In this document: positions 1 through 32,227 of the stretch, piece by piece
How the letters are laid out: each line of letters starts with the position of its first letter
Numbering within the stretch: the stretch's first letter is position 1
Origin: a virus
Length of the DNA: 32,227 nucleotides
Reading direction: 5' to 3' (one strand)
Virus record (IMG/VR): IMGVR_UViG_3300012139_000001
Location: 1-32,227 of that record
Notes under the pieces: generated by a model
Told to the model about the DNA's origin: nothing
Seen by the model: the letters and a program-made list of their open reading frames with translations, nothing else
Databases searched by the model: none
Program-made: the position numbers and the translations under genes

Positions 1-123
1 AGTGTGTTGGTTGGGTTGGCTGGGTTCCGCGTGTGGCGGATCGTTGCGGTAGACACGATCTTTGATAGGCCGCGGGAACGCGTGCTAAATGGTGCGCCCG
101 TGTGGGTGCAAGACCTCGTCTAT
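1..123. repeat. Terminal overlap, copy 1 (identical to 32105-32227)
   Basis: The 123 nt are identical by direct comparison. Confidence 0.95.
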
Positions 124-270
124 TGCGCTTGGTGTCTGGGCTGGTGGATTACCGGTGTGCTGGGTGTGCTTGTTGGTTTGGGGTTTGGGTTGGTGTGGTG
201 GCAGGTCGGGTTAGTTTGGTTGGCGGGCAGCGCGGTTACTGGGCTGCTCGGTAAGCTTGATCAAGTTTAG
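1..270 (+). CDS. Small membrane protein, DUF1360-like; 3' part of the gene that starts at 32078 and crosses the window junction
   Basis: The frame is open from nt 1; nt 1-123 equal 32105-32227 and are in phase with ATG 32078. An FRVWRIVAVDTIFDRPRE motif is followed by W/G/L-rich hydrophobic segments (CAWCLGWWITGVLGVLVGLGFGLVWWQVGLVWLAG). Stop TAG at 268-270. Confidence 0.6.
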   Translation, partial: SVLVGLAGFRVWRIVAVDTIFDRPRERVLNGAPVWVQDLVYCAWCLGWWITGVLGVLVGLGFGLVWWQVGLVWLAGSAVTGLLGKLDQV

Positions 271-305
271 GCAAAAACCCGGTTTCAAGTTAGGCAAAAC
301 CTCAA

Positions 306-1979
306 CTAGCCGAGGGTCGCGTAGGTTAGCCCGGTTTTAATCTCCGCTTTCAATGGTAACCCCTCGGCCCAGTCGGGTACGGTTTCCATGATCATTTTCA
401 ACGTGCTTGGTGTGGTGGGGGGTTCGCAGATTAGTTCATCGTGCACGTGCCCGACCACGCGCTGTTCTTCCTCGGCGCACATGAGTAGGTGGGTGGCGAG
501 CAGGTCGCGGGCGATTGCTTGCACGATGTTTTCAGCTAGTCGGCCTCCCCACGAATCAGCACGCGCGTGCAATACTCTGCCCGAGGGTAATAGGTATCCT
601 TTTGGATTGTGATCTTGCTCTAACCGCCGCCAGTATGCGACGATACGCGGGTTATGCTGCCGCCAAGCATTTACGATCTTGGAGAGTTGATCATCACTGC
701 CGAGTAGGCCGGCTCTTCGGAGTGCGCCGGTCCCGCCACCATATCCGAGGGCTAGCACTGCGATTTTACCGGTGCGCCGGTCCGCGCCTAATCGTCTTCC
801 GGTTTCGGTGTATACGTCTCGGCCTTCATGGTACGCGTCTAGTAGCCAGGTTTCCCCAGCTTGCCACGCTAATATGCGGGATTCGATTTGCGCGTAGTCT
901 CCGACGATTAGCGGCCCTTGGATGGTGTGTCGGATTAGCCCGCGTAGTTGATCATACGATGCGGGATTGCCGAGGTGTAGGTCTACGGTCGTGGTATATG
1001 GTGTATTAGTCGCACGGGGCAGGTTTTGGGGTTGCACTAGTCGCCCAGCCCATCGACCAGTGTGCGCACCATGATATTGGTACATGCCGCGGATACGCTG
1101 ATCGTTAGGGTCAGCAGCGTCGATTAGTGTCTGATATTTTCGGGTTGCGGTTCCGGCGAGTTGCTCGCGTAGTTTTAGCGCGGTGTAACCAGTGTCGGTT
1201 AGGTCAGTCGGTGGGTAGGTGAGGGTGTCGGTGATTGTCTCAGCTTGTAAGTTTTTATGCGGGTACCCTTGGGCGTGTAAGGCGGGTAGGAGTTGTTTCG
1301 GGCTACGCGGATTCTCAATATTGAGCAGCCCGGCTAGTTGATCATAAACCTGTTTTTGATGATCTTCTGCTGCTTGGGCGGCTAGTTCGCACAGAGCAAG
1401 ATCAATTTTTAGGCCGCGGTCGTTAACGTGTTCGGATTCTACCCAGACGCGCCGTTCAAACGTTGACCATGCGGGTAGCCGTGCGAGTAACTCGGCGCAG
1501 ATGGTCGCGTCTTGGCGCGCGTACGCTAAGAGTTCCTCCCATTCTAAGGGCGCGTCTTCTGGTCTGTAATATTCGCCGCCCGCCCAGCGTCGCAGTAACC
1601 GCGTACCAGCCGCGTGCTTGCCGGGTAGCCCGTAATGCTCAGCGACAGCGGCTAATCCTTGCGGGGCACCGTCTAACGCGGTTAGGGCCATGGTGCACGT
1701 CCACGCTGCGGGATCAGCTAAGCGCGGATTATTTGCCCAGCGGGCGAGGATGTGCCGATCGAATCCGGCGTTATGCGCTGCTTTCGGTGTGGTTGGATCG
1801 GTTATGCCGGGGATCGTGTCGAGTTGATCGACTAGTGCGATTTGTGGGGGTTGGTCGGGTTGGGTGGTGTCTTGCCATGCGCAGCAGCGAATTTGGGTTG
1901 TGGGATGATAGGCGTATGCGTAAGCGCCTACCCGACTAAGATCAACTTTAGAGTAGGTTTCGAAATCTAAAACGATCAT
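306..1979 (-). CDS. Family A (Pol I-like) DNA polymerase with N-terminal 3'-5' exonuclease domain
   Basis: 557-aa ORF starting at ATG 1979. It has the Exo I motif LDFETYS and polymerase motifs DYAQIESRILAW (A), RRTGKIAVLALGYGGG (B) and HVHDELICE (C). Confidence 0.9.
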   Translation of the reverse strand: MIVLDFETYSKVDLSRVGAYAYAYHPTTQIRCCAWQDTTQPDQPPQIALVDQLDTIPGITDPTTPKAAHNAGFDRHILARWANNPRLADPAAWTCTMALTALDGAPQGLAAVAEHYGLPGKHAAGTRLLRRWAGGEYYRPEDAPLEWEELLAYARQDATICAELLARLPAWSTFERRVWVESEHVNDRGLKIDLALCELAAQAAEDHQKQVYDQLAGLLNIENPRSPKQLLPALHAQGYPHKNLQAETITDTLTYPPTDLTDTGYTALKLREQLAGTATRKYQTLIDAADPNDQRIRGMYQYHGAHTGRWAGRLVQPQNLPRATNTPYTTTVDLHLGNPASYDQLRGLIRHTIQGPLIVGDYAQIESRILAWQAGETWLLDAYHEGRDVYTETGRRLGADRRTGKIAVLALGYGGGTGALRRAGLLGSDDQLSKIVNAWRQHNPRIVAYWRRLEQDHNPKGYLLPSGRVLHARADSWGGRLAENIVQAIARDLLATHLLMCAEEEQRVVGHVHDELICEPPTTPSTLKMIMETVPDWAEGLPLKAEIKTGLTYATLG

Positions 1980-2004
1980 GGTCGGGTAGGCGCTGCGAGG
2001 TTGA

Positions 2005-2541
2005 TTAGATCAGATCCGTTTTCTGCGTGTTGTTAAGAGGTGTGAAGTCGTCTTCGGGGCTGCTAGTCGCACCGAACGGTTCTCCCTCCGTCATTTTCTG
2101 CAAGTTGTTCAACGCGAAGCTAACCCCGTGTTTCCCCGCATAAACGTAGGCGAAACTGGTTAGGCTGACGCGCACGTAGCAGCCGGCGTAGACTTCGCTA
2201 GGGTTTAGGATTGGTTGCATGTTTTGGTCGATCACACTTGGCCGCGTTGTTGATCTTGCGGTTAAATAGTAGTGGTTGCGGCGTTCCGGGTATTTTTCTA
2301 GGTCTGCTTGGTCGCCGTCCATGATTACTGAATCGATTTTGTGCGGTTTTTTCCCAGCCCATTTACTGGGGATGGCTTGAGTGACCGCATCAGCCTCGGC
2401 CTGCCGGAGTTTCCCAACGGTTTCTTGATCATCTTTATTAATCAAGATCATTAGGCTGTATTTTGGTTTCTCATCGCCCCACGCGAACGGTTCGAACAAA
2501 TTCGGATAAGATAAGCGAACTTTACCAGTAACTATTTTCAT
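2005..2541 (-). CDS. DUF2815-type phage ssDNA-binding-like protein
   Basis: The N-terminus MKIVTGKVRLSYPNLFEP and the size fit DUF2815. The gene lies in the usual DUF2800 / DUF2815 / PolA replication module. Start taken at ATG 2541; the ORF track starts at TTG 2547. Confidence 0.7.
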   Translation of the reverse strand: MKIVTGKVRLSYPNLFEPFAWGDEKPKYSLMILINKDDQETVGKLRQAEADAVTQAIPSKWAGKKPHKIDSVIMDGDQADLEKYPERRNHYYLTARSTTRPSVIDQNMQPILNPSEVYAGCYVRVSLTSFAYVYAGKHGVSFALNNLQKMTEGEPFGATSSPEDDFTPLNNTQKTDLI

Positions 2542-2601
2542 GATCAATTTTCCTTTTCTTCTGTTTCTCTTTATAGGTAGCCTGTTTGGCTAAGCCCTAG
2601 T

Positions 2602-3582
2602 TTACCACGAATCCAGTAGAACACGTAGCGCGAACTCTGCCTGTTGCGGCACAACCCCATTCCCCAGCATCATTTGTTGCGCAGAATACGAGACACCTAA
2701 CCGCGGATCAGTAACCCACCCATCCGGCAACCCCATCATCCATTCTAAAAACCGTGTAGACAACCGCCCGCTATGATCAACTTCTAAAGGTTCCGGGACT
2801 AACCGTTCGAGCATCTGCTCCCACAACGCTACCCGCTTAGCGTACTTCCCCCATTTTCGAACAAATCCAAGATCGTCTCCTGAGCTGGTGCGCGCGTCAA
2901 TTCCAAGATTTGCACTAGCGCTGTCTGGAAATCCCCGGAAGCTAAACGCTTCGCTAAACCCGCATCGGTTAGGGTTGACGGATCCTGCGCTAGCGGGGTT
3001 TTGAAAAGTTGATTTTCGCTGGGCGACCCCAAAAACCCGTTTTCTTCGGTGAGGCGCTCCAACTCGGGAAGCAGTGACGCTCGCCCATCGAGTGTCATAC
3101 CCGAGTCCGGCCAGGTCTCCGAGTACACACCCAAGCGCCCGAAGATGTCCGGCTGATCCGGCACCATCCAAAGCAGTTCCTCCGGATCCCACACTGCGAA
3201 CGGCATACGCTGATAATATGCCCTCAACATTTTCGAAAACAACCCATCTCGGCCATAGTTGATCAACAGCATAAGCCATTTGTGTCCATAATCCGGTGCG
3301 TGTGGAAGGTGCTAGGCCGGCGCGTTTCCCCGCTGTGGAAACATCTTGGCAGGGGAACCCGCCGCATAAAATATCGACGCGTAACACTGAGGGCCAGTCT
3401 ATGCGCGTAATATCCCCGAGATTCACGGCGTCTGGCCAATGGGCAGAGAAAATCTTAGAGCTGCTCTTGTTGATTTCGGAGTGCCAGACGGTTTTAGCGT
3501 TGAATACTTTTTCTACTGCTAGGTCTAACCCGCCGTAACCGGAGAATAGGCTACCGATCCGCAGCTGATGATCTTGGACCAT
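2602..3582 (-). CDS. DNA (cytosine-5) methyltransferase
   Basis: Full C5-MTase motif set: I FSGYGGLD, IV GGFPCQDVS, VI FENV, VIII HRRKRVF, IX/X LEWMMGLPDGW and GNGVVP. The variable region between VIII and IX is short, which suggests a single short target. Confidence 0.9.
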   Translation of the reverse strand: MVQDHQLRIGSLFSGYGGLDLAVEKVFNAKTVWHSEINKSSSKIFSAHWPDAVNLGDITRIDWPSVLRVDILCGGFPCQDVSTAGKRAGLAPSTRTGLWTQMAYAVDQLWPRWVVFENVEGILSAYAVRSVGSGGTALDGAGSAGHLRALGCVLGDLAGLGYDTRWASVTASRVGAPHRRKRVFGVAQRKSTFQNPASAGSVNPNRCGFSEAFSFRGFPDSASANLGIDARTSSGDDLGFVRKWGKYAKRVALWEQMLERLVPEPLEVDHSGRLSTRFLEWMMGLPDGWVTDPRLGVSYSAQQMMLGNGVVPQQAEFALRVLLDSW

Positions 3583-4021
3583 GCGCTTTGTCTATCTGCG
3601 AATACACTACCTTGATCAAGATTACTAGATCGTTAACATCGAGTTTTGGGTTAGCCGTTTTCAGGTAGTCGCGGATCTGTTGCTCAGCTTTGGCGAATTC
3701 CCGGACCTGCGTAACTGGTTCCCCGCGAATCGACAGCTCCCAATATGGGGCTAAACGCTTAGCTTTAACCTTGATCAAATTCAGTGCGTGCGCACGGGCC
3801 ATCGAGTAGTCTTCACGATGCCCGCACGCGTTTTTCCACGTATCGCACTGCCAGCGGTGCGATCCGTCATAGGATAATCCGCGTTTAATCTCGCCGCGTG
3901 GTCGTCCGCAGATCACGCATTCCCATAAGACTTTGATCTTGAAAAAGTTTTCGGGTCGGCCTTCGTGCTGGTCGAACTTGGGGATATGAATTTCTCGCAC
4001 ATCTTTTTTGTTCATGATCAT
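3551..4021 (-). CDS. Hypothetical protein with Cys/His cluster (possible zinc ribbon)
   Basis: 156-aa ORF whose ATG 4021 overlaps the upstream stop (ATGA). Contains the cluster CVICG ... C ... CGH. The 3' end overlaps the methyltransferase start by 32 nt. No family recognised. Confidence 0.5.
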   Translation of the reverse strand: MIMNKKDVREIHIPKFDQHEGRPENFFKIKVLWECVICGRPRGEIKRGLSYDGSHRWQCDTWKNACGHREDYSMARAHALNLIKVKAKRLAPYWELSIRGEPVTQVREFAKAEQQIRDYLKTANPKLDVNDLVILIKVVYSQIDKAHGPRSSAADR

Positions 4022-5169: not shown

Positions 5170-5519
5170 GGTGTGGCTTCTTGTTCGGCGAGGAACTTGG
5201 AGAAAAGGTCATGCTTGGCGAGTGTGTCGAGGTCGCTTACCCTCGCGACGCCGCTAGCGATCAGCGCGGCGCGTACTAAGTCGGTTTTGCCTTGGTCGAT
5301 TAGTTTTAACGCGGTTTGTGAGGCTTTTTCGGTGAGCTCTTTCACATCCGGGGAGCTTGGCGCTGGCGCTGGCAGTGTCGGGGTTTCGGCGGGCTCTGGT
5401 TCGGGAGTTGGTGGCGTAGCCGCAGCAGTTGCTACTGGTGTCGCATCGTCGAGGATGGCGAACAAGATTTCGCGGTCCTTAGCCGATAATGGTTGGGTTA
5501 GGTCTATGGTGATGATCAT
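5166..5519 (-). CDS. Hypothetical protein with Pro/Thr/Ala-rich linker
   Basis: Start taken at ATG 5519, which overlaps the upstream stop (ATGA); the longer ORF in the track would overlap the HTH gene. The protein begins MIITIDL and has a central PTPEPEPAETPTLPAPAPSSP linker. Confidence 0.55.
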   Translation of the reverse strand: MIITIDLTQPLSAKDREILFAILDDATPVATAAATPPTPEPEPAETPTLPAPAPSSPDVKELTEKASQTALKLIDQGKTDLVRAALIASGVARVSDLDTLAKHDLFSKFLAEQEATP

Positions 5520-5764
5520 TTTAGAAAGCTTTCTGCTGTGGGTTTTAATCTGTTGTGAATGCGGCTTTTGCTCTGCCGCTGTGCTGCCCAGGTGGTGATC
5601 GTCTCCGGATGCCAATAAGGGGTCCGGCCTAGGCGCCCGTCACATTCGGGCATGAGTTTGCGAGTGCGGTAGGTGTGCACGGTCATCATCGTTACTCCGA
5701 GGTATTCGGCGATGTGTTGAAGGGTCCACACGCCGGGAGTGTTCAGACTAGGGTCCGTGGTCAT
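5516..5764 (-). CDS. Small helix-turn-helix DNA-binding protein
   Basis: 82 aa. WTLQHIAEYLGVTMMTVHTYRTRKLMPE looks like a MerR/excisionase-type HTH. Confidence 0.6.
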   Translation of the reverse strand: MTTDPSLNTPGVWTLQHIAEYLGVTMMTVHTYRTRKLMPECDGRLGRTPYWHPETITTWAAQRQSKSRIHNRLKPTAESFLK

Positions 5765-5856: not shown

Positions 5857-6099
5857 TTATTTCTGCTTTAGGATGGCTAGTGCTGCCTCGCGGGCCAGCA
5901 TCTGGATAGGGTATTCAGTGACAGTCCAGCCAGTCGCTTTGCTTCGATTGAGGACTAAAAAGGTGGCTTTTTCGCGAGGTTCGCGGGGGTTGTCTGGACG
6001 CTTCGGGTACCAGCCGAAAAGCGTAACGTGTACGTCTTTCGTTTTTGCGTGGGTTAGCACGATTAGGTTGCCTTCTGTGAGTCGTCCTTTGATGATCAT
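5857..6099 (-). CDS. Hypothetical early protein
   Basis: 80-aa ORF immediately downstream of promoter P1 and the conserved leader AGGAGAAACAGAAATG. No family recognised. Confidence 0.55.
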   Translation of the reverse strand: MIIKGRLTEGNLIVLTHAKTKDVHVTLFGWYPKRPDNPREPREKATFLVLNRSKATGWTVTEYPIQMLAREAALAILKQK

Positions 6100-7935: not shown

Positions 7936-8342
7936 TAGAGCTCGTCTCTGCGATAGGGATCCCAATAATAGGGTTCATCATTGTCATCTTGATCATCTTG
8001 ATCATCTTGATCATCTTGATCATCTTGATCATAGTCGGGCAAGGGTTTTTCGTATTGTTCGAATCCCGCCCACCGGGCCATTAAATAATAGAGAGTAGCG
8101 GCCGGCATCAGAAACCATTGCACGAGCGCATCGTAAGACTCGGGGCTAGACCCTTCCCACTGGTAATATGCGTGGCCTTCCTGGTAGTTATCTTGGTCGG
8201 TGTAATAGCGGGCTCCCCAGGTGGCGTCTTCTGTGCCTGGTGGGGCCCAGCCGATCGCTAAGACGCCTTTATCTGGATGCGAGTAGATCGAGTGTTGGTC
8301 TTGGTCTCGTGTGACTTTCAGGCCCGGGTTGAAAATGATCAT
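7935..8342 (-). CDS. Acidic hypothetical protein with (DDQ)5 repeat
   Basis: Start taken at ATG 8342 with RBS AGGAAAGGAA upstream. The C-terminal DYDQDDQDDQDDQDDQDDNDE is encoded by the 9-bp tandem repeat at 7985-8032. Confidence 0.6.
   Translation of the reverse strand: MIIFNPGLKVTRDQDQHSIYSHPDKGVLAIGWAPPGTEDATWGARYYTDQDNYQEGHAYYQWEGSSPESYDALVQWFLMPAATLYYLMARWAGFEQYEKPLPDYDQDDQDDQDDQDDQDDNDEPYYWDPYRRDEL
7985..8032. repeat. Tandem 9-bp repeat (CATCTTGAT) x5.3
   Basis: Read directly from the sequence. Each unit contains TGATCA. It encodes (DDQ)n on the minus strand. Confidence 0.95.
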
Positions 8343-8901: not shown

Positions 8902-9145
8902 GTTCAACTGGGCTACTTATAGTCACGACTTGATAACCGAGCCGGATAAGACGCGCATGCCACATCGACTGCGCCGGCGACACGCGCCCGGACTCAGATT
9001 TTAACTCGATGAATACGGTACGTCCCCAAGGTAAGAGCACTAACCGATCTGGTAGGCCCGCTGGTGGGGGGCGAAGCTTGACCGCGACCCCGCCACGCTT
9101 AGCCACCAGAGCCGCCAGACGCTCTTCTAACGCGTTTTCACGCAC
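8876..9145 (-). CDS. VRR-NUC domain nuclease
   Basis: GLPDRLVLLPWGRTVFIELKSESGRVSPAQSMWHARL matches the VRR-NUC core (PD ... ExK ... Q..W). GTG start at 9145, overlapping the upstream gene by 8 nt. Confidence 0.75.
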   Translation of the reverse strand: MRENALEERLAALVAKRGGVAVKLRPPPAGLPDRLVLLPWGRTVFIELKSESGRVSPAQSMWHARLIRLGYQVVTISSPVELDRLARRW

Positions 9146-9353
9146 TCGCGGCAGTTCCCTGCGGGAGCGGCTCAGAAGGCGTTAGAGCCGCGTCTAAGTC
9201 CTCTCGCCGGAACCGAAGCAAACCCTGCTTGCCGCGCGCAGGGCCCTTATAGGCACGAATCAACCGTTGATAGGCCCAAGTCCGCAAAGTATGCGGACTG
9301 ATATTCAGATACTCGCTCGCTTCTTGCGTGGTAAACCAGCCGTTACTAGACAT
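9138..9353 (-). CDS. Small HTH DNA-binding protein (excisionase/MerR-like fold)
   Basis: Contains FTTQEASEYLNISPHTLRTWAYQRLIRAYK ... RFRREDLDAAL. It is the first gene of the leftward arm. Confidence 0.65.
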   Translation of the reverse strand: MSSNGWFTTQEASEYLNISPHTLRTWAYQRLIRAYKGPARGKQGLLRFRREDLDAALTPSEPLPQGTAASA

Positions 9354-9448
9354 GCGTAAAAGAGTAGCATAAACAGCCTATATACGTTTATATTCGTATA
9401 TTAGCGCCTACCGTGCTTATAAAGTTGATCATCTGCGATACTGTGCTG

Positions 9449-14209: not shown

Positions 14210-14542
14210 ATGCGGGGTATGTATCAGCGGCCTATTGATTTGTTCCCTGTGGACGTTTATGGTCCGCTCGCCCCGGGGGTTGATCAGATCCGTTTTGGCC
14301 GGTTATTCGTCAGGGATGACCGACTGTTTATCGCCGCGAGTCCGGATCGGGGTAAAACAGTGTCCTGGGTCAGGTCTTACCCGTTGCCCGACACTGGGCC
14401 GAAGCGGTCTACTGGGCCTTATTCGCGTTGGGGGCCGTGGAAGTATAAGAGTTGTGGGTGTAATAGTAGTTGGCGGTCTCAGACGGTCGACGGTTTACGC
14501 GCTCTCGCTGTTTCTGAAGATCAACAACAGGCGAGTCCATGA
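14210..14542 (+). CDS. Hypothetical protein between terminase and portal
   Basis: 110-aa ORF with protein-like composition. It competes with the overlapping ORF 14235-14555. Confidence 0.45.
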   Translation: MRGMYQRPIDLFPVDVYGPLAPGVDQIRFGRLFVRDDRLFIAASPDRGKTVSWVRSYPLPDTGPKRSTGPYSRWGPWKYKSCGCNSSWRSQTVDGLRALAVSEDQQQASP

Positions 14543-14567
14543 TCAACACTATTAGGGGTTGTTGATC

Positions 14568-16604
14568 ATGGCAGGCGCGTTAACGCGAATCCGGGACACA
14601 CTCTGGCCAGCGCGGCCGGTAACCGCAGCACTACCCCCCAGAATCCCACAAGGCACACTCAACCACACCTTACCGGCTAAACGTGACACCGGCAGCGCGT
14701 GGTACGCGTACAGGCATGTTGGGGAAGTGCATTACGCGGTATCGCAGCAGGCGCGGCTGGTTGGCCGCGTTAATTGGGATGTTAAAATTGATGATCAACT
14801 TTTAGAGGCTGATACCGCGGAGAGTTTGTTATCTGAGTGCTTCGGTTCCGGGTTATCAGAATTATCTAGGCTGTGCGCTGCGCATCTCCTAGTATCAGGC
14901 GCTTATTATCTAGCACAGGGTCAATGGGCGGATGATCAACATTATGCGGATGATCTTGGCGGCTGGACGGTCCTAGCCTGCCCTATTAGTGGAACGAGTA
15001 GGCAGCAAGCGAAAACCGCGAGCGTTCTCATTCACGTGTTGAACGCTGACCCGGCGGACCCGTCGCAACCGGACAGCCCGGTGCTAGCAGCCGGTGAAGT
15101 GATCAGCGAACTCTTGTTAGCCCGGGCGCAAGCACGGGCGAGCGCCCGGTCACGTACCGCGCAATTACAAACCGTACTCTACCCGTTGGATGGGGTTGCG
15201 GAGCCAGCCGAATTCGAAGCGTCCCTTTTGGATATGATTAGTAGCCCGATCATGGACGAACATAGTGTTAGTAGTGTCGCACCTAATTTGATCGGCTTTC
15301 CGGGGGAGATGATCGATCAATGGCGAACCCTAGATTTTACTGGTCCGGTTGATGAGAAAGTCCAAGAGAAAATATCTAACCTGGTCAAACAATTAGCGGT
15401 GATCTTGGATAGTCCCCCTGAGATTTTGTTGGGCACCGGTGAGGTTAATCATTGGAGTGCGTGGCAGATTCAAGAGGATAACTGGTTAGGGCACGTGGAA
15501 CCGTTAGCGCGTAGGGTGGGTGATGGGTTCGCGCGTGCTCTCTCAGCCGCGGCTAATGTTGATCTTGGACGTGTGCAAGTGTTACCGGACCCATCCCCTT
15601 TGTTGCAGCGTCGCCCGTTAATAGCTGATGTGCTCGCCGCGTATCAGGGTGGTCTAGTTAGCGGGGAGTGGGCGCGCGCCCAGTTGGGAGCGGATGAGGA
15701 TGACCGCCCGACCCTTCCACCAGAGCAGCAATCGGGGGGTGTTGCGGTGATGCCGCCCACGCGTGTAGAAGGGTCGGGCTCTACTGGTGAGCCTACCTCG
15801 GTTACGGCCGCGGTAGGTGTTGCAGAGATCGCGAGGGGTGTTGCGGAGGCGTCTGGCGCGTGGATTGCGCAGCGGCTAGCTGATGTTGACCGACAGTTGT
15901 TTGACAGTGTTGAGGATTTGGTTACGAGTGTGGTTGAGCGTGTGCTCACCAGGGTGGGTGCGCGTGTCCGCTCGCGGTTGCAAGGTTCACCGGAAGCCCT
16001 AGCGTGGCGAGACAAGACGAACGCCGAGTTAGCGGTCATGCGGGGCGCCGAGTTGGCTGGTGACGCGGGCGAGTTGGTCGCCGGGCTATTAGTGGATCGG
16101 TTTGGGCGGCTGGTTGCGCGCGCGGTCTCACAGTGCATCCAAATACTGGGCGTAGGGATTGAAGCGGATGCGCAGCTGGTGGATGATGCGGCTAGCGGAC
16201 TGGTCGCTGAGGTTACTCAGATAATTGAGGCACGCCTAGCAGGTAGACCAGAGCAGCCGGGTCGTGTTTGGGGGGCGGTACGCGGGGCGTTGGCTATCGC
16301 CGGTGGGCAACCCCGACCAGTTAGCACGGATGAAGCGGTTACGGCGGCTATCCCTTTGGCGGGGTGGATCGGTATCGGGGTCGCACTCGGCGGGATTGTG
16401 GGTGCTGCGGTGAAAGCAGCGGGTTGGATAGCTGAGGGATATCGCTGGGTGCACGCGTACACCGGGGATCAGCCGTATCCGCCGCATCAAGCGTTGGATG
16501 GCCAGAATTTTGATGGTCTAGCGGTGAATAATTTTAGTCCTGGTGATCATGTGGGCTGCCGTTGCTATGCGAAACCGGTTTTAGTGTGGAAGGGACCCGG
16601 ATAA
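14568..16604 (+). CDS. Portal protein fused to a MuF/SPP1 gp7-like head morphogenesis domain
   Basis: The position after terL and the size fit a portal. The C-terminal end YRWVHAYTGDQPYPPHQALDGQNF ... GDHVGCRCY is the MuF-family signature. ATG 14568 is preceded by AGGGG and the 12-mer TTGTTGATCATG. Confidence 0.7.
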   Translation: MAGALTRIRDTLWPARPVTAALPPRIPQGTLNHTLPAKRDTGSAWYAYRHVGEVHYAVSQQARLVGRVNWDVKIDDQLLEADTAESLLSECFGSGLSELSRLCAAHLLVSGAYYLAQGQWADDQHYADDLGGWTVLACPISGTSRQQAKTASVLIHVLNADPADPSQPDSPVLAAGEVISELLLARAQARASARSRTAQLQTVLYPLDGVAEPAEFEASLLDMISSPIMDEHSVSSVAPNLIGFPGEMIDQWRTLDFTGPVDEKVQEKISNLVKQLAVILDSPPEILLGTGEVNHWSAWQIQEDNWLGHVEPLARRVGDGFARALSAAANVDLGRVQVLPDPSPLLQRRPLIADVLAAYQGGLVSGEWARAQLGADEDDRPTLPPEQQSGGVAVMPPTRVEGSGSTGEPTSVTAAVGVAEIARGVAEASGAWIAQRLADVDRQLFDSVEDLVTSVVERVLTRVGARVRSRLQGSPEALAWRDKTNAELAVMRGAELAGDAGELVAGLLVDRFGRLVARAVSQCIQILGVGIEADAQLVDDAASGLVAEVTQIIEARLAGRPEQPGRVWGAVRGALAIAGGQPRPVSTDEAVTAAIPLAGWIGIGVALGGIVGAAVKAAGWIAEGYRWVHAYTGDQPYPPHQALDGQNFDGLAVNNFSPGDHVGCRCYAKPVLVWKGPG

Positions 16605-17644: not shown

Positions 17645-17718
17645 TATGCTGCTCGTGTAGTGCCCGTAGGACACTCCTCTGTACTGTCATTTAATTGATC
17701 ACGAGGGAGGTCCTTGCG

Positions 17719-19338
17719 ATGGACCCGTTAGAAATCGTTAGCCGCCTAACCAGCGAAGGGGCTAAAGCTCCGAGCACTGAGGACCTAAGCGCAGCCGCTC
17801 AGGAGCTACGCGTTGCATTGGATCTTGCTACTCAAGGGGATACTCCGGACCTGTCGGTTGCCAGGGATTTACGGGCCGCGCTGGATCAGGCGACCGGTGA
17901 ACTCGCGCAGCGTGCCGCAGCAGCGGAGCAAGCGCGCGCTGAGGCGGCGAAGCTCCGCGAAGGCGCCGGACTAGAGCAGCTGAGTGATGCACCAGTTGAG
18001 GATGAGCCGGAGAAAAAGGAAGACGAGCCTAAAGAAGACGAGGAAGAGTCTAAGAAAACGGAGGAGCCGAAAGCAGTCGCCGCGGGCATTACAGATGTGA
18101 TTACTCGTTTGCGCGCCAGGGCTGTTGCGGATTCGCAGCCGAAACCCGCACCACTAGTAGCCGGAGTTACTCTTAGGGCTATCGGCCCTGCAGCTGGCGT
18201 GGAGTTAGATCAAGCGGCGGGTTTCGCCCAATTGGGTCAAGTGTTCTCGACACATGCTAAGAGTCTCACGCAAGGCCGTAGCGCGATGGTTCGTCTTGAG
18301 CGCAGGTATGCGCCTGAGCGTGTCCTCGGGTCGAATGGAGACCAGAACACTTCACGGATCGAGCGCGTGCTGGGTCCTGACGCGCTGGCGGTTACGGCTG
18401 CTGGCGGGTTGTGCGGTCCTGGTGATGTGGATCATTCGCATCCTATTTGCGCGGAACAAGGCCGCCCAGTACGTGACGCGCTCGTTCAGTTCAATGCTTC
18501 GCGTGGTCGAGTAACTTTCGCGCCGGCGGCCGGGTTGTCTCAGGTCGCGGCGGGGGTTGGTGAGTGGTCGAGTGAGACCGATGCGGACCCGGGCACGCAG
18601 GTGAAAGAGTGCCCCCCGGTCGAGTGTCCCGAGGAAATCTCAGAATCGGTGGACGCGATTTACCGCTGTTTAACGATCGGGAACTTCCAAGCGAAGTTCA
18701 GTCCGGAGTTTTGGGCTAGCCGGCTCGAATTACTGGCGGCGGCGCATGACAGGGCGGCTGAGCGTAAAGCACTCCGGGAGATGGAAGACGCGGCTACTGA
18801 TGTGCCGGTGCAAGGCCCAGACGGTGGTACGCTCCGAAACTTTTTGACCGCGGTTAACCGTGCGGTCGCTTACGATCGAGACGCTAATCGGAACCTGACC
18901 GGGCGGTATAAGCTGGTCGCTGATCACTGGGTGCGTGATGCACTACGCAATCAGGCGATCGCTAACCAAGGGGTCGCGAATAATTTCACTGATCTACAAG
19001 CCACAGATCAGCTCATTAATAGCTGGTTGAACGGTGTCGGGGTTGACCCAGTCTGGACCTATGATGGTACTTATGATGGTGCGGCTAATGCGCATCGCGT
19101 GCTTTCGGGTCCCGGTGATTTCCCGGATACCACTTCGTTCCTCTTGTTCGGTGAAGATGCGTTCGTGTTCCTGGATGGCGGCACGCTCGACTTGGGGACG
19201 AGTATTAGCGATAGTGCGCTAGCGTCGACTAATGATCGGCAAGCGTTTGCTGAATCGTTTGAGAAGGTCGCTTATCGTGGGTGTGGTGCTTATGATGTCG
19301 CGTTTACTGTGAGTGATGTTTGCGGCTGCCCAGCATGA
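17719..19338 (+). CDS. Major capsid protein with N-terminal coiled-coil/acidic scaffold-like domain
   Basis: RBS GAGGGAGG lies upstream of ATG 17719. The N-terminal ~130 aa are Ala/Glu-rich with EDEPEKKEDEPKEDEEESKK. Later motifs AAGGLCGPGD, RGRVTFAP, KECPPVECP and FLDGGTLDLGTSISDS are recalled from actinophage capsid proteins. Confidence 0.6.
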   Translation: MDPLEIVSRLTSEGAKAPSTEDLSAAAQELRVALDLATQGDTPDLSVARDLRAALDQATGELAQRAAAAEQARAEAAKLREGAGLEQLSDAPVEDEPEKKEDEPKEDEEESKKTEEPKAVAAGITDVITRLRARAVADSQPKPAPLVAGVTLRAIGPAAGVELDQAAGFAQLGQVFSTHAKSLTQGRSAMVRLERRYAPERVLGSNGDQNTSRIERVLGPDALAVTAAGGLCGPGDVDHSHPICAEQGRPVRDALVQFNASRGRVTFAPAAGLSQVAAGVGEWSSETDADPGTQVKECPPVECPEEISESVDAIYRCLTIGNFQAKFSPEFWASRLELLAAAHDRAAERKALREMEDAATDVPVQGPDGGTLRNFLTAVNRAVAYDRDANRNLTGRYKLVADHWVRDALRNQAIANQGVANNFTDLQATDQLINSWLNGVGVDPVWTYDGTYDGAANAHRVLSGPGDFPDTTSFLLFGEDAFVFLDGGTLDLGTSISDSALASTNDRQAFAESFEKVAYRGCGAYDVAFTVSDVCGCPA

Positions 19339-19382
19339 TCAACCAGGGTAAGATCAACTAGTAGGAAGTAGGTTGGGTGGGG

Positions 19383-20810
19383 ATGGCTTTACCAACACCA
19401 GTTAGTCTTGATTGGGGGCCAACCCCACCAGGCCAAGGTCTCTTAGGCGTGGCGCGTCCGCTCCCTAGTGGGTGGGAGCGGGGTATATCGTTCGCGGATG
19501 CTAGTTGTATCCCAGCCACGGCAACAGGGATATGTCCGGTACCGGGGTTCACCGGCACGCTGCCGCAGTATGTTTGGTCGGGTTTTGACGAGCTTCGTTA
19601 CTTGTGCGCACCATCACCGCCACGGTGGGAACAAGGCGTTGAGTATCAGAGTAACGATGGTGATCTTGGTGACCTCGTCCAATTATCTTCGGGCGAGATA
19701 TTGGAGTGTACGACTAGCGGGGTGTCGAATAATTATGATGGTGACCCTGAGGTTGAACCGATTCCTGATGATAATGATGGTTCGGTTGGCACGCGGTGGG
19801 TTGAGCGGCGTGACGGGACCGCGGTTTGGCGTCGGGTCACTGATCACACGGGCAGCGGTGAGAGTGTTAGTCTGACTTTGCCCGGTCGGGGATCAGTGGA
19901 GTTTACTTGTGAGGATTACCCGATCGGCCCGAGTGATGATACGAAGTTTTTGGAGCGGGCGCGTGCTGCGTGGGGCGCGGATTGCGTGCCGGACGCTTGG
20001 GTTCAAAGTCCCGGGGGCGGTTATACTATCGGGTTTCGTTTGGGTGGTGCGTGCGCGGAGGATTTACCTTTATCGCCGGATCGGGAGCCTCAAGCGGATG
20101 AGCACACCGAGGTTAACGGGGATCCTGGGACACCAGGCGAAACACTAGAGTTAAAACCTTTGGGCCGTCCGGTGGAAGCGGTTTTTACGCCTGTGACGTT
20201 GATCATGAGTGTGGCTTGTACTGGTGCGGGCCGTCAGGCTGTGGAGAATCTCGCTGGTGCTGAGTTGGATCTTGCTCGGGATATGGTGTTAGCGGCTGAG
20301 TTGTTCACTGGTGGGACGTCGGCGCGGGACACACCACGCGCGGGGGGTGTGGCTGCGGGGAACCCGAGCCTGGTTGGTAGCGCTATCTCGGTGGGTGAGT
20401 ACGGGAGTGTTGCGCAGGCGGTCGGCTGCTTAGAAGAAGCTTTGCTGCGGGCGAATGGTGGTCGGGGCGGCGTGTTGTTCGCGTCTCTCGTGTGGCAAGC
20501 GTTTTTGAGGGATGCGGGTTTGGTGTGGCGTGATGGGGCACGCTGGCGCAGCCCTAGCGGTTTGCTGGTGGTCGTGTCGCCGGCGTTTGATGGGCGCGCA
20601 CCAGGAGCCACCGAGGCGCCAGCGCAAGGCGAGAACACGTTTTTGTATGCGGCGGGGAATGTTTGGGCTGGTATTGGTGAGCGCTGGCAGTTGGATAGTT
20701 TTGATCGTGCGGTTAATACGATTGAATCAAGGGCTGAGGATATTGGGATGGTTGTGTTTCCGCCGTGCGCTGTTTTTGCTGCGGGGAGTAGTCAGGTCTT
20801 AGCTTGTTGA
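19383..20810 (+). CDS. Virion structural protein; the C-terminal half looks HK97-fold capsid-like and there is one CBM5/12-like insertion
   Basis: The C-terminal pattern AVGCLEEALL ... LLVVVSPAFDG ... NTIESRAEDIGMVVFPPCAV parallels the HK97-family C-terminus (E.R..l.v..P.A). Residues ~84-151 carry the Trp-bounded module also found in the next gene. Confidence 0.4.
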   Translation: MALPTPVSLDWGPTPPGQGLLGVARPLPSGWERGISFADASCIPATATGICPVPGFTGTLPQYVWSGFDELRYLCAPSPPRWEQGVEYQSNDGDLGDLVQLSSGEILECTTSGVSNNYDGDPEVEPIPDDNDGSVGTRWVERRDGTAVWRRVTDHTGSGESVSLTLPGRGSVEFTCEDYPIGPSDDTKFLERARAAWGADCVPDAWVQSPGGGYTIGFRLGGACAEDLPLSPDREPQADEHTEVNGDPGTPGETLELKPLGRPVEAVFTPVTLIMSVACTGAGRQAVENLAGAELDLARDMVLAAELFTGGTSARDTPRAGGVAAGNPSLVGSAISVGEYGSVAQAVGCLEEALLRANGGRGGVLFASLVWQAFLRDAGLVWRDGARWRSPSGLLVVVSPAFDGRAPGATEAPAQGENTFLYAAGNVWAGIGERWQLDSFDRAVNTIESRAEDIGMVVFPPCAVFAAGSSQVLAC

Positions 20811-20847
20811 TCATGGGCACGGATAATATTAGGGAAGGTTGTTGATC

Positions 20848-22470
20848 ATGGCCGAACGAGGTTTCACACCGATACGCGGGCGTACCATACGGATTACGCA
20901 ACTGGATGATTGTTGCACGCCGCAAGCTGAGGGTGCGGAATGCGCGGTTAGCGTGTTCGACGCGTTCACCCTCGCCAGTTTTGAAGCGAATGTTGAAGAG
21001 GGGGAGACGCAGATCACTCGGAAGGCTAACGGGGATTTGTGCGCTAACGAGAGTGACCCGAACCTGCTTGTCGATCTTGGCGTGACCCTAACCCTATGCC
21101 AGGTACTACCAGAAACGGTTAGTCTCTTAACGGGCTGGCCGGTTGTGAGGGATAGCCGCGGGGTCGCGCAAGGTGTGGACGTGACCGAGGGTGCGAGTTT
21201 CGCTGAGGTCGCAATCGAAATCTGGAGCGGTGTCGCTGGCACCGCGTGTGGTGACGGTGCGGCGTATGGTTACACGATTTTTCCGTGCACTACTGGTTGG
21301 AGTTTGGACGGTGAACTGGAATATGGGGGTTTGGATACGACTTTCACGCTTACTCTGACCGGCAGGGCTAAGGGTAGGCACGCGTGGGGAGTAGGACCCT
21401 ATGCGGTTCAGTTGGATGAGAACGGTGATCCCGGTCCGTTGTTGACGCCGATTGTGCCTGGTGGTTTGGCGCGTATTGGTGTGACTGATGTGCCCCCACC
21501 AGCGAACACAGGTGGTTGCGTATCGGCGACGCGGGAGAATGGTTACACGTGGCCGCCTGAGGAGGACCCGATTGTTCAAGGTTGGCAGCCGAACACTGAG
21601 TATCGGGTTGGTGATCAGGTTCGGTTGAAAGGTGGGCAGATCGTCACTGTCAGCGAACCGGGTACGAGCGGGTCGACGGAGCCGAACGCACCGGAGGACG
21701 GGCAAACCGTGGAAGACGGGTCAGTGGTTTGGCGCAGGGATGATACGCGCGCGGTGTGGACTGCTGATGCGTATTATGCGAGTGGTGACCGTGTGCAGTT
21801 GAGCACGGGGGAATGGTTGACTGTTCGGCAAGCGGGTCGGAGCGGCACTACTGAGCCGGTCGCGCCCGGGCCTGGTGAAACCGTGTCCGATGGGGATGTG
21901 CTCTGGGAGCAGGATGGGGAGCGGAACCCTGATCGTGGGCAGTGGCAGCCGAACACTACTTACTGGGAAGGTGACACGGTTCGTCTGAGCACTGGTGAGA
22001 AGGTGACCGCGTATCAGACTGGGGAATCCGGTGATACTGAGCCAGAGGCGCCAGCTCCAGGCGGGCGAGTATCGGATAACAGTACGGGTTGGTCTCGGTC
22101 GAATAAGTGGCAAGCGTCGGAGCCGTATAAGACTGGTGACCGTGTTCAGTTGAGCTCGGGGGAGTGGTTGCAAGCGGGCAACGACGGGCGTAGCGGTACG
22201 AGTGAGCCACCAGCACCGGGACCAGAACAAACTATCCAGGATAATGAGGTGGAGTGGCGGCAGGATGCGGAAGATAATCCGCCTGCTGATAGGCCACGCT
22301 GGCAGCCGAATACTGCATACGCAGTGGGTGATGAGGTCGAGCTGAGCTCCGGTCAGGTTTTGCGGGTCACGGAGGCGGGTACTAGCGGTAACGATGAGCC
22401 GGTAGCACCAGGTGACGGGCAAACCGTCGAGGATGGGACGATAGTCTGGGAGCAGATCAGCGAAGGATAA
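20848..22470 (+). CDS. Structural protein: tail-tube-like N-terminal domain (~245 aa) plus five C-terminal CBM5/12-like repeats
   Basis: The N-terminus ERGFTPIRGRTIRITQLDDCCTP ... resembles actinophage major tail proteins from memory only. It is followed by five repeats of 55-64 aa, each W.PNT.Y..GD.V.LS.GE ... SG..EP.AP ... W. Confidence 0.45.
   Translation: MAERGFTPIRGRTIRITQLDDCCTPQAEGAECAVSVFDAFTLASFEANVEEGETQITRKANGDLCANESDPNLLVDLGVTLTLCQVLPETVSLLTGWPVVRDSRGVAQGVDVTEGASFAEVAIEIWSGVAGTACGDGAAYGYTIFPCTTGWSLDGELEYGGLDTTFTLTLTGRAKGRHAWGVGPYAVQLDENGDPGPLLTPIVPGGLARIGVTDVPPPANTGGCVSATRENGYTWPPEEDPIVQGWQPNTEYRVGDQVRLKGGQIVTVSEPGTSGSTEPNAPEDGQTVEDGSVVWRRDDTRAVWTADAYYASGDRVQLSTGEWLTVRQAGRSGTTEPVAPGPGETVSDGDVLWEQDGERNPDRGQWQPNTTYWEGDTVRLSTGEKVTAYQTGESGDTEPEAPAPGGRVSDNSTGWSRSNKWQASEPYKTGDRVQLSSGEWLQAGNDGRSGTSEPPAPGPEQTIQDNEVEWRQDAEDNPPADRPRWQPNTAYAVGDEVELSSGQVLRVTEAGTSGNDEPVAPGDGQTVEDGTIVWEQISEG
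21583..22467 (+). repeat. Five tandem coding repeats (55-64 codons) of a Trp-bounded CBM5/12-like module
   Basis: The repeats start at residues W249, W307, W369, W424 and W488 of the track ORF. They are diverged at the DNA level. Confidence 0.8.
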
Positions 22471-25771: not shown

Positions 25772-25792
25772 ATTCGGGGGATTTTGTTGATC

Positions 25793-26110
25793 ATGAGTAA
25801 AAGAGTAGTAGAAACCAGAAAAATTAAACTAGGCGACCAAAACTATGAGTTTCGCGTTCCGAAAGTCGCCGGAATCCTGTTCGCACTAATGCACATTCGG
25901 AACCTGCCGGAAAACGAGCGTGAAGCTTATATGATATATGAGCAAGTAGAATGGTTGAAAAAAGGTTTAGGCGAAGAACAATGGAAACTAATTGAGGGGA
26001 GGTTGAAAGACGATGACGATATTCTCGATTTTCCAGATCTTAGCAACAGTACTTTGGGGCTGGTAGGGGAAGTAGCGGGACGCCCCCCTACATCGTCCAC
26101 CGCATCCTAA
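25793..26110 (+). CDS. Tail assembly chaperone (G-like short form)
   Basis: 105 aa, acidic, ending in GRPPTSSTAS, and located immediately upstream of the tape measure gene. ATG is preceded by TTGTTGATC. Confidence 0.7.
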   Translation: MSKRVVETRKIKLGDQNYEFRVPKVAGILFALMHIRNLPENEREAYMIYEQVEWLKKGLGEEQWKLIEGRLKDDDDILDFPDLSNSTLGLVGEVAGRPPTSSTAS

Positions 26111-31056: not shown

Positions 31057-31091
31057 ACGGGCGTACACTCTACTAGGGAGGTTTGTTGATC

Positions 31092-32081
31092 ATGGAAGTT
31101 AATCCGCCATCGTATGCGCAGGATGGGTGTTACACGGCGCAGCAAGACCGGCAGATCCTCGCGGGCATGATTTGTTCGGATGGCGTGCAAAACCGTCGGG
31201 GCGGTGACATGCTCGTCACGCCTTCCACTGAAGGTTTAGCGGTTGATGTTGCTGCGGGGGAGGCGTATATCGCTGGGGATGATGTGCAAGGTCAGGGCAT
31301 GTATTTCGTGGTCAATGATGCGAGTAAGCGCGTTGAACTTGCTGCAGCGGACCAATCCGACCCGCGTATTGATCTTGTTATCGCGCAGGTGCGCGATTCC
31401 GAGTATCAGGGTGATGAGAGCCGCTGGGATATTATTGTTTTGACTGGGACACCGTCGCCGGAGCCGCAGCCGCCCAGCCTGCCGGGTAACGCGATCCGCC
31501 TAGCTGAAATAACTGTGCCCGCTGGTGCGTCATCGGTGGCAGCGGAGAATATTCGGGACCGTCGGGAGCAGGCTGCGTTATGTGATCAGCTCTGCTCATG
31601 CCCCCGCTCGTGGATCGCTACCGTACAAGACGACGAGGTTTTCGGGGCGGACGGCCGGCAGCCTTCCACTAAACTCCGCGTGCGCGGGCTCCCCACGGGG
31701 CAGGACGGGTTCGAAGGCTCTTATATTTTCGAAGCGATGATCATCGTACAAGCGAACTGCGCTAACCAGCGTGTGCTTATTACGATGGATGGTGCGACGT
31801 GGTCGGCTGGTGGGATCGGCCCGGCGTTTAACCATCAAACCGGGGAAGGTGGGGACGCTCGGTTCATTAGTGTCGACTTGGCGCGTGCTGGTGGTATTTG
31901 GATGGGCACGGGGGAGAACACGCCAGCCGATGATAACCGGGGTATCCCGATCTGGATCGCGGGGATAATGCGCGCGCGTGACGCGGAGGTTGGGTTCGGG
32001 TTTGAGCGTGAATCTAATGGCTGTCAGATCGTGTTGGAGCGCGGGTCGTATTGGAAGATTACGCGTGCCGTGGCCCCATGA
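31092..32081 (+). CDS. Minor tail / receptor-binding-like protein
   Basis: The N-terminal domain SYAQDGCYTAQQDRQILAGM ... LAVDVAAGEAYIAGDD ... DPRIDLVIAQVRD follows the conserved N-domain pattern of actinophage minor tail proteins. ATG is preceded by GGGAGG and TTGTTGATC. Confidence 0.5.
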   Translation: MEVNPPSYAQDGCYTAQQDRQILAGMICSDGVQNRRGGDMLVTPSTEGLAVDVAAGEAYIAGDDVQGQGMYFVVNDASKRVELAAADQSDPRIDLVIAQVRDSEYQGDESRWDIIVLTGTPSPEPQPPSLPGNAIRLAEITVPAGASSVAAENIRDRREQAALCDQLCSCPRSWIATVQDDEVFGADGRQPSTKLRVRGLPTGQDGFEGSYIFEAMIIVQANCANQRVLITMDGATWSAGGIGPAFNHQTGEGGDARFISVDLARAGGIWMGTGENTPADDNRGIPIWIAGIMRARDAEVGFGFERESNGCQIVLERGSYWKITRAVAP

Positions 32082-32227
32082 TCATTTTAGAGTTATTGGG
32101 TTTGAGTGTGTTGGTTGGGTTGGCTGGGTTCCGCGTGTGGCGGATCGTTGCGGTAGACACGATCTTTGATAGGCCGCGGGAACGCGTGCTAAATGGTGCG
32201 CCCGTGTGGGTGCAAGACCTCGTCTAT
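32078..32227 (+). CDS. DUF1360-like membrane protein, 5' part (continues at nt 124 of the window through the terminal overlap)
   Basis: ATG 32078 overlaps the upstream stop (ATGA). The translation MIILELLGLSVLVGLAGFRVWRIV runs into the sequence also seen at nt 1-270. Confidence 0.6.
   Translation, partial: MIILELLGLSVLVGLAGFRVWRIVAVDTIFDRPRERVLNGAPVWVQDLVY
32105..32227. repeat. Terminal overlap, copy 2 (identical to 1-123)
   Basis: The 123 nt are identical by direct comparison. Confidence 0.95.

Follow-up and report, generated by a model that had tools for sequence, protein, structure and literature searches.

Genome-wide over-representation of the palindrome TGATCA in a 32-kb tailed phage and its relatives

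The phage genome and its TGATCA count

The IMG/VR record IMGVR_UViG_3300012139_000001 (positions 1 to 32,227; these 32,227 bases, the whole stretch analysed, are called the window) holds the genome of a tailed phage in which the palindrome TGATCA is strongly over-represented. The genome consists of two divergent arms, a leftward early arm from about 300 to 9350 and a rightward arm from 9449 to the end. The early arm encodes a family A DNA polymerase, a Gp2.5-like single-stranded DNA (ssDNA)-binding protein, a C5 cytosine methyltransferase, a DUF2800/PD-(D/E)XK nuclease, an SNF2 helicase, a VRR-NUC nuclease and two small HTH_17 proteins, while the rightward arm encodes a primase/helicase of 828 amino acids (aa), terminase, portal, major capsid, major tail, amidase endolysin, tape measure and minor tail proteins. 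In total, 36 genes were called and checked against the gene calls of a public contig, and no integrase was found among them. The first and last 123 bp of the window (1-123 and 32105-32227) form an exact direct repeat, which contains no TGATCA site; thus, the unique genome is 32,104 bp long and complete, either circular or terminally redundant. Its G+C content is 56.9%. The same sequence is also recorded as ENA contig ERZ27241844:k141_139648 and in the Logan assembly of SRR6448510.

TGATCA occurs exactly 72 times, which corresponds to one site per ~450 bp or 2.24 per kb. The excess over chance is about 13-fold. By comparison, 100 dinucleotide-preserving shuffles gave 4.61±2.11 copies with a maximum of 13. 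The expectation is 5.5 copies from base composition (zero order), and 5.0, 13.3 and 27.2 copies under Markov models of order 1, 2 and 3, respectively; the last of these already takes in TGAT, GATC and ATCA, all of which are inflated by the sites themselves. With an order-2 observed/expected ratio of 5.4, TGATCA ranks first among all hexamers, and the runner-up palindromic hexamer is enriched only 3.1-fold. A top-ranked short palindrome many-fold above Markov expectation is also what characterizes the highly iterated palindromes (HIPs) discussed below.

In 52 of the 72 sites (72%), there is an A or T on both flanks. The octamer AGTTGATC is present 13 times and its complement GATCAACT nine times, against 0.80±1.02 expected for the two, and the final A of TGATCA is missing from half of these 22 copies. 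An earlier, sequence-only reading of the window had arrived by hand at about 72 TGATCA sites, mostly of the form WTGATCAW, at 32 sites in the early arm and at no fewer than 22 copies of the octamer. These figures all hold (32 sites lie at or before 8417, or 33 counting the one at 9426), as does the excess over a third-order Markov model that it had put forward as a check. Its octamer positions were right to within a few bases, with 6890 and 30529 to be read as 6880 and 30530.

Selection at the level of duplex DNA

For the synonymous shuffle, codons were permuted within each gene so that the protein, its dipeptides and its codon usage were kept; start and stop codons were excluded and 1000 shuffles were made. 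Internal coding TGATCA was found 56 times, against 24.6±3.8 and a maximum of 36 in these shuffles, and against 8.5±2.9 when codon order was shuffled. The octamer AGTTGATC/GATCAACT showed the same trend in coding DNA, with 18 copies against 4.35±1.86 under the synonymous shuffle. The sequence-only reading had named a codon- and dipeptide-preserving shuffle as the test that could refute it; the observed counts are not reproduced by this shuffle.

The choice of codons and of amino acids points in the same direction. In the context T|GAY|CA, aspartate is encoded by GAT 43 times and by GAC once, whereas GAT:GAC is 24:22 before CA when another base precedes, and 351:296 over all Asp codons. The base that precedes GAT-CA is T in 43 of 67 cases, in contrast to 23% generally, and xxT-GAT-CAx is realized at 43 of the 76 positions where the protein permits it. 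Some dipeptides are themselves in excess, namely Asp-Gln (66 observed, 30 expected), Asp-His (24 and 12.7) and Met-Ile (13 and 4.6). In the nuclease, for instance, all four sites use a Gln or His that falls in a column that varies among homologues or in a clade-specific insertion. In effect, the TGATCA excess acts on DNA and not on proteins, and the protein sequences themselves are bent to carry the word. That the enrichment reflects DNA-level selection working against coding constraints, as had been proposed, is borne out by the 43:1 synonymous bias, the doubling of Asp-Gln and Asp-His, and the conservation of sites in relatives (see below).

It might be thought that coding and translation signals (codon usage, dipeptides, start regions) produce the excess as a side effect, with no meaning at the DNA level. 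Around 16 sites do lie at starts, stops or ribosome-binding-site (RBS) spacers, and the protein-preserving shuffle already yields 24.6, three times the count of the codon-order shuffle. Nevertheless, this explanation can be given almost no credence and was rejected on the basis of both shuffles, the context codon counts and strand symmetry: the 56 internal sites far exceed the 24.6±3.8 of the synonymous shuffles and the 36 of the highest in 1000, the 43:1 codon choice is specific to its context, oriented words are equal on both strands, and the third-order Markov model accounts for only 27.2 of the 72 sites.

A repair drive that turns near-matches into TGATCA should deplete the one-mismatch neighbours of the word. 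These neighbours were generally found at expectation in the comparison with shuffles. TGATTA/TAATCA, the products of 5-methylcytosine deamination, were observed 10 times, against 10.3 (synonymous) and 8.6 (codon-order) expected, and since they are not depleted, a very-short-patch-repair footprint of the C5 methyltransferase was rejected. Just two neighbours deviate: the synonymous alternative TGACCA/TGGTCA, with 9 copies against 20.4, and AGATCA/TGATCT, which keeps one half-site, with 41 against 20.8. Undepleted neighbours, together with the conservation of sites, argue for selection rather than biased conversion.

The excess is graded with the completeness of the palindrome, as obtained by arithmetic on a table of NGATCN counts. 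GATC lacking both the 5′ T and the 3′ A is not enriched (74 observed, ~73 expected), half-sites alone (TGATC or GATCA) are about twofold over-represented (89 against ~40), and the full palindrome is 13-fold over-represented (72 against 5.4). A neutral GATC, a raised half-site and a far larger excess of two half-sites form the pattern expected from selection by a symmetric dimer. As an oriented consensus, W-G-T-TGATC-(A/T)-T-(G/C) was obtained, and the base before GTTGATC is A in 22 cases, T in 22, G in 6 and C in 2. Because A and T are equally frequent at this position, AGTTGATC, which the sequence-only reading had singled out as a word of its own, is one of two equal extensions, and TGTTGATC is just as common.

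Oriented forms of the word do not distinguish between strands. On the coding and template strands, respectively, there are 35 and 41 copies of TTGATC, 20 and 21 of GTTGATC, and 106 and 103 of TGATC; on the plus and minus strands of the genome, TGATC occurs 116 and 117 times and TTGATC 55 and 34 times, five of these coming from the array described below. This symmetry rules out explanations at the RNA level, codon-pair effects and an oriented Chi-like signal; the earlier suggestion of a recombination signal consequently does not fit in its oriented, Chi-type form. The signal sits on duplex DNA, not on RNA. Neither flank asymmetry nor orientation by arm was significant.

Relatives, the methyltransferase and the placement of sites

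No near DNA match to the window was found among 50,697 phage records. Searches of metagenomes and IMG/VR gave four partial relatives: L161 (86% nucleotide identity, 13 TGATCA in 3.6 kb), L176 (83-87%, 23 in 6.2 kb), L175 (75-82%, 11 in 2.9 kb) and L300 (68% aa identity in the primase, 5 in 4.35 kb against 0.39 expected). The first three, represented by their early arms, have 3.6-3.8 sites per kb. As all four are enriched, the trait belongs to the clade, a small one made up of actinophage-like siphoviruses that are uncultured, and the count in related phages that the sequence-only reading had proposed as a check supports it. Non-redundant alignments showed conservation in relatives for 20 of 26 window sites, where frame-matched hexamers predict 9.4 (p=3e-5); a wider comparison, not independent of the first, gave 28 of 38. 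Thus, sites are conserved above background, as in iterated palindromes (Xu 2018). There is also turnover, with 18 sites found only in a relative.

Outside the clade, 129 loci have a median order-2 observed/expected ratio of 0.8. Among terminase relatives in genomes and IMG/VR, identity does not exceed 49%, and the nearest of these relatives (46-49% aa identity) have TGATCA ratios of 2-3. Glutamicibacter phage Montesquieu, with the same order of the replication module, has an order-2 ratio of 1.6, and Microbacterium phage Kozie has no TGATCA site at all. Contigs with homologues of the endolysin were distant phages.

A scan of IMG/VR for triple TGATCA clusters returned at least one unrelated contig with many dispersed sites, the matches listed being mostly coding tandem repeats. 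This contig, L279, is a fragment of an HK97-type phage with 47% GC, in 13.5 kb of which there are 42 dispersed TGATCA sites (order-2 observed/expected 4.3), 193 GATC and 20 AGATCT. TGATCA-rich phages may therefore recur in other lineages, and such recurrence may merit a systematic survey. Another contig, L238 (68% GC), contains nine TGATCA in 5.5 kb.

The C5 cytosine methyltransferase gene (2602..3582, minus strand; PF00145, E=1e-36) had been proposed as a link to the GATC core. However, the segment at ~2636-3533 is absent from L161 and L176, which lack this gene altogether and in which the flanking genes abut, and these relatives still have 3.6-3.7 sites per kb. Consequently, the C5 enzyme is not the cause of the enrichment, and this candidate was rejected on the missing gene together with the lack of a deamination footprint. 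When compared with M.HhaI and M.HaeIII, only the catalytic half of the enzyme matches. The gene, an insertion/deletion difference between relatives, lies in the 2-kb bin of lowest GC (0.514), and its two Asp-Gln opportunities are each used for a TGATCA site.

Among the small early proteins, a 71-aa HTH_17/excisionase-like DNA-binding protein (9138..9353, minus strand) is a candidate phage reader of the word, and an 82-aa protein with a weak HTH_17 match (5516..5764, minus strand) is a second putative one. A 156-aa early protein (3551-4021, minus strand) has a Cys-rich motif, CVIC...C...C-GH, that is kept in L161 and that suggests a zinc finger; no family, PDB or confident structure match was obtained for this protein. 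PDB sequence searches with the small proteins gave no match, and single-sequence structure predictions of two early proteins without assigned function reached a pLDDT (predicted local distance difference test) of 45-47.

From left to right, the 72 sites start at 258, 389, 688, 949, 1339, 2426, 2541, 2774, 3260, 3613, 3772, 4015, 4250, 4784, 4922, 4970, 5513, 6093, 6623, 7001, 7037, 7046, 7124, 7163, 7485, 7990, 7999, 8008, 8017, 8026, 8336, 8417, 9426, 10084, 11148, 11490, 14068, 14281, 14540, 14563, 14792, 14933, 15100, 16544, 17696, 18921, 19336, 19841, 20200, 20808, 20843, 21612, 22878, 23972, 24353, 24377, 24395, 24998, 25444, 25525, 25788, 26147, 26716, 29186, 29463, 29930, 29949, 30146, 31087, 31583, 31738 and 32079. 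Copies of AGTTGATC start on the plus strand at 685, 946, 1336, 1822, 3257, 4127, 4919, 6166, 7160, 9423, 25235, 26193 and 30530, and those of GATCAACT, on the minus strand, at 1940, 2775, 6880, 7002, 10106, 10217, 14793, 19352 and 26717. The sites are spread genome-wide over genes of unrelated function and in several frames, which is the dispersal known from iterated palindromes; internal coding sites are mostly in the frame xxT GAT CAx. The early/replication arm (1-9400) contains 33 sites, ~3.5 per kb, and the late arm 39, ~1.7 per kb. This twofold difference arises mostly because the early arm offers twice as many Asp-Gln/His opportunities per residue.

Gene boundaries are often occupied, and 11 of the 36 gene starts have a site at most 10 bases away. 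Five genes start with ATGATCA, and a sixth, the ssDNA-binding protein gene (2005-2547, minus strand), has its site at the start as TTGATCATG (2541..2546). On the minus strand, the site at 4015..4020 joins the ATG start of gene 3551-4021 to the TGA stop of gene 4018-5169 as ATGATCA, and the one at 5513..5518 joins the start of gene 5166-5519 to the TGA stop of gene 5516-5764. Further minus-strand start contexts are ATGATCATC (6093..6098, gene 5857-6099) and ATGATCATT (8336..8341, gene 7935-8342). Within the site at 32079..32084 lies the TGA stop of gene 31092-32081; this site also overlaps the start codon (ATG at 32078) of the last gene, which crosses the junction. In all, six TGA stop codons lie within a site, three of them in ATGATCA start/stop overlaps. 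Plus-strand sites whose TGA is a stop codon are found at 14540..14545 (gene 14210-14542), at 19336..19341 (major capsid gene 17719-19338; the site that the sequence-only reading had assigned to the gap before gene 19383) and at 20808..20813 (gene 19383-20810).

Four late genes have in common the start spacer GG(A)GG-TTTGTTGATC-ATG, with plus-strand sites between RBS and start of the portal gene (ggggTTGTTGATCATG, 14563..14568) and in the conserved spacers before the major tail protein gene (ggaaggTTGTTGATCATG, 20843..20848), gene 25793-26110 (25788..25793) and gene 31092-32081 (gggaggTTTGTTGATCATG, 31087..31092). The corresponding start regions, 14551-14570, 20831-20850, 25776-25795 and 31075-31094, are near-identical. 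Most early genes start with ATGA(T/C)CA(T/C) behind an A-rich RBS such as GGAGAAACAGAA. Only two sites are plainly intergenic: one at 9426..9431, in the control region from which the HTH gene (minus) and the primase gene (plus) diverge, and one 5′ of the major capsid gene, at 17696..17701.

Of the 72 sites, 67 are dispersed, and the remaining five belong to a single 45-bp tandem array of 9-bp units, (TCTTGATCA)x5, at 7987..8031. The array encodes an Asp-Asp-Gln repeat in the acidic tail at the C-terminus of an early protein of 135 aa (gene 7935-8342, minus strand). There are five units in the window and three in the stored copy of the ENA contig (L162 4737-4763), a difference that may be either a true length polymorphism or an assembly collapse. 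The 123 bp of the terminal repeat equal the assembler's 141-bp k-mer overlap minus 18 bp, and 18 bp is the difference in size of the array. The longest stretch free of TGATCA, 11496-14067 (2.6 kb), takes in the genes of the small and large terminase subunits as well as the end of the primase gene, and bin 12001-14000 contains only four GATC. By itself this stretch is not significant; it may be a module exchanged more recently.

Known systems and possible explanations

The genes of the phage point to Actinobacteria. All portal matches are actinophages, the best polymerase matches are phages of Glutamicibacter, Brevibacterium and Corynebacterium, the amidase endolysin has its nearest matches in Streptomyces and Kitasatospora, and the methyltransferase is nearest, at ~50% identity, to Micrococcales and other Actinobacteria. 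Thus, the host is likely an actinobacterium, judging from these matches. Contigs with methyltransferase homologues, followed as a lead to the host, turned out to be actinobacterial conjugative elements that lack the enrichment.

The closest precedent is cyanobacterial, and the earlier statement that the word has no described function or precedent was too strong. GATC-centred highly iterated palindromes are described in cyanobacteria (Elhai 2015, PMC4390886); HIP1, GCGATCGC, and its variants GGGATCCC and TCGATCGA (Robinson 1995, PMC4390886, PMC5861425) are, like TGATCA here, palindromes with a GATC core far above Markov expectation. Likewise, they are dispersed in coding and non-coding DNA, imposed at synonymous sites and more conserved between relatives than the background, with no gene-level function; HIP1 is conserved by selection (Xu 2018, PMC5861425). 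A 2026 preprint proposes HIP1 as a methylation-dependent self-mark for DNA uptake (bioRxiv 10.64898/2026.06.24.733823). The differences are that TGATCA is a 6-mer and not an 8-mer, that its flank is T/A instead of GC/GC, and that its carrier is a 32-kb lytic-type phage with actinophage-like genes and not a cyanobacterial chromosome. In addition, a HIP would be expected to have a methyltransferase that recognizes part of the palindrome encoded in the same genome (Elhai 2015, PMC4390886); no cognate methyltransferase was found in the phage, and the only methyltransferase, the C5 enzyme, is dispensable for the trait. Outside cyanobacteria and with no cognate methyltransferase found in the phage, TGATCA would work like a HIP but is not a strict member of the class.

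The word itself is also known from picocyanobacteria. Either TGATCA or TTGATC/GATCAA ranks as top hexamer in marine Synechococcus and high-GC Prochlorococcus (PMC4390886), with 700-870 copies per Mb and order-2 ratios of 3.4-5.8 (PMC4390886, Table 2, Suppl. Table S3); in BL107 and CC9902 it is TTGATC/GATCAA. The over-represented word is called a 'weak oligomer' there, and these genomes do not have the GATC methyltransferase DmtA (PMC4390886). The word, its TTGATC extension and the order-2 ratio (5.4 here) are therefore alike. By contrast, the density is 0.70-0.87 per kb there and about three times higher here (3.6-3.8 in the early arms of relatives), TGATCA is the dominant word here, and the genes point to Actinobacteria. 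A cyanophage origin, considered because of Elhai's data, was rejected on the portal, polymerase, endolysin and methyltransferase matches, and is further weakened by S-CBS1 and Syn5, phages of TGATCA-rich Synechococcus that show no excess (observed/expected 0.53 and 1.2, respectively).

Other systems share the word or its abundance. The pac (packaging) site of phage P1 contains TGATCA/G hexamers, and its cleavage is Dam-dependent. The RctB iterons of Vibrio cholerae chrII have a conserved TGATCA core that is read by protein (PMC3401445). One local cluster of five units (7987-8031) resembles these arrangements, which are single clusters at a packaging site or an origin, but 67 of the 72 sites are dispersed here and no Dam gene was found. 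The pac-type or iteron array was rejected, as the sole array is part of a coding sequence, varies in its number of units and lies ~4 kb away from the terminase genes; the stretch that holds the latter has no TGATCA between the sites at 11490 and 14068. Chi, KOPS (FtsK-orienting polar sequences) and the uptake sequences DUS and USS (DNA uptake sequence and uptake signal sequence) are also short words that are many-fold enriched genome-wide, inside genes, by selection on DNA. However, Chi and KOPS are asymmetric and strand-biased whereas TGATCA is strand-symmetric, and uptake sequences belong to competent bacteria, not to phages. TGATCA is the site of BclI, a type II restriction target, and phages reportedly avoid restriction sites; the same kind of 4-6-bp palindrome is thus seen here with the opposite sign, as a 13-fold enrichment and not a depletion. 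The literature search found no paper that describes such enrichment in a phage.

We tentatively favour, at slightly less than an even chance, the reading of TGATCA as a selected, HIP-like, genome-wide mark on the duplex DNA of this phage lineage. Selection would have written the word into every weakly constrained position of the genome, filling synonymous sites, variable Asp-Gln and Asp-His, second codons, RBS-start spacers and TGA stops. The unit recognized would be the half-site TGATC on both strands, with W-G-T-TGATC-W-T as its extended form, and a half-site read on both strands suggests a symmetric, dimeric reader such as those of GATC-family sites. The benefit appears to depend on the number of sites per genome rather than on the location of each. 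The phage's own C5 methyltransferase is not the reader; we infer that the reader most probably comes from the host and could be a methyltransferase-linked or other GATC-family DNA-discrimination system. By analogy with the HIP1 proposal, a densely marked genome might then be treated as 'self' or protected.

Several observations weigh against this reading. No reader protein for TGATCA was identified, and neither a Dam-like or GATC-specific methyltransferase nor a GATC-binding fold was detected among the phage proteins. Moreover, Actinobacteria, to which the host would belong by homology, are generally not known to have GATC biology of the Dam/MutH type. A benefit that simply grows with site number explains the twofold density of the early arm only via weaker protein constraint, and the sites at 11 of 36 gene starts could point to a local role in expression.

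Alternatively, the phage may have drifted passively toward a host chromosome made TGATCA-rich by mutation or repair bias, with no function involved. Phages generally resemble their hosts in oligonucleotide usage. Some bacteria do have TGATCA/TTGATC as top word at order-2 ratios near that of the window, prophage loci of Actinobacteria have a weak excess when pooled (1.59, against 0.74 for other phyla), and the nearest terminase relatives reach 2-3. Nevertheless, such host mimicry is unlikely: one-mismatch neighbours show none of the depletion expected from a conversion drive, sites are kept twice as often as background, the 2.24 sites per kb are about three times the density of any genome in Elhai's table, and actinobacterial conjugative-element loci stand at 0.47. 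The low ratios of S-CBS1 and Syn5 further indicate that mimicry of a TGATCA-rich host is not automatic. The sites might instead bind a phage-encoded protein (the 71-aa or 82-aa HTH_17 protein or the Cys-rich 156-aa protein) that coats, compacts, silences or protects the genome, most densely in its early arm. The palindromic core and the half-site gradation would fit a dimeric binder, site density doubles in the early arm, the divergent control region contains one site and gene starts contain others (11 of 36), and the trait follows the phage clade and not actinobacterial DNA in general. But 6 bp is short for an HTH operator, the sites are spread over all genes and all frames, their placement following no logic other than weak constraint, and nothing links the candidate proteins to the word, all of which makes a binder of this kind quite improbable.

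A role in replication or recombination is less probable still. The sites would serve as start sites for the 828-aa primase/helicase, or for entry, nicking or protection in a recombination-dependent replication that involves the DUF2800 nuclease, the Gp2.5-like annealing protein and VRR-NUC. One site per 450 bp is similar in magnitude to priming or recombination intervals, a conserved replication module accompanies the trait in all relatives, and TGATCA is the protein-read core of RctB iterons and of P1 pac. However, known primase sites are 3-5 nt long, Chi-type signals are oriented whereas the words here are symmetric with respect to both transcription and genome strand, and Montesquieu, with the same module order, has an order-2 ratio of only 1.6. 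A broader proposal, to which we give a rather low chance, is that TGATCA is a code owned by the phage and not copied from a host, the first viral highly iterated palindrome, read genome-wide by a phage protein, the replisome or the recombination machinery. If so, it might serve to tell phage from host DNA, or to protect or organize the genome.

Phages are textbook avoiders of palindromes, and this lineage does the opposite to an extreme degree: for one restriction-type palindrome per 450 bp, it accepts amino-acid changes and a 43:1 synonymous fixation. What iterated palindromes do has been an open question for 30 years, and only recently has HIP1 begun to be linked to methylation-dependent self-recognition. 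With its 72 sites, a 32-kb phage would be a far smaller, recodable system in which such marks could be tested, and it would also show whether viruses exploit or counterfeit the 'self' marks of their hosts.

Avoidance of other palindromes exists beside the enrichment. TGTACA, TCTAGA, TACGTA and ATGCAT have no copies, against 5.5 expected for each, and CTGCAG (2 against 9.5), CGTACG (2 against 9.5) and CATATG (1 against 5.5) are also depleted; these words are candidates for targets of host restriction. Another frequent word, the Chi octamer of E. coli type, GCTGGTGG, is present in 15 copies, ~one per 2.1 kb and about three times the ~4.6 of synonymous shuffles, on the plus strand at 140, 5158, 9060, 16175, 16673, 20564, 25136, 26603, 31806 and 31887 and on the minus strand at 13059, 13677, 21496, 22207 and 24457. 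By coding orientation, there are 8 copies against 2.4 and 7 against 2.3 in the shuffles. As an E. coli-type lead to the host, this octamer was set aside and leaves the host inference unchanged; the host appears to be Gram-positive. A second over-represented word, CACACACCA/TGGTGTGTG, which is unrelated to GATC, has 12 copies against ~1.6 in synonymous shuffles, with starts at 4463, 4733, 9592, 9765, 9848, 11036, 11701 and 13043 on the plus strand and at 4329, 22749, 23903 and 28135 on the minus strand.

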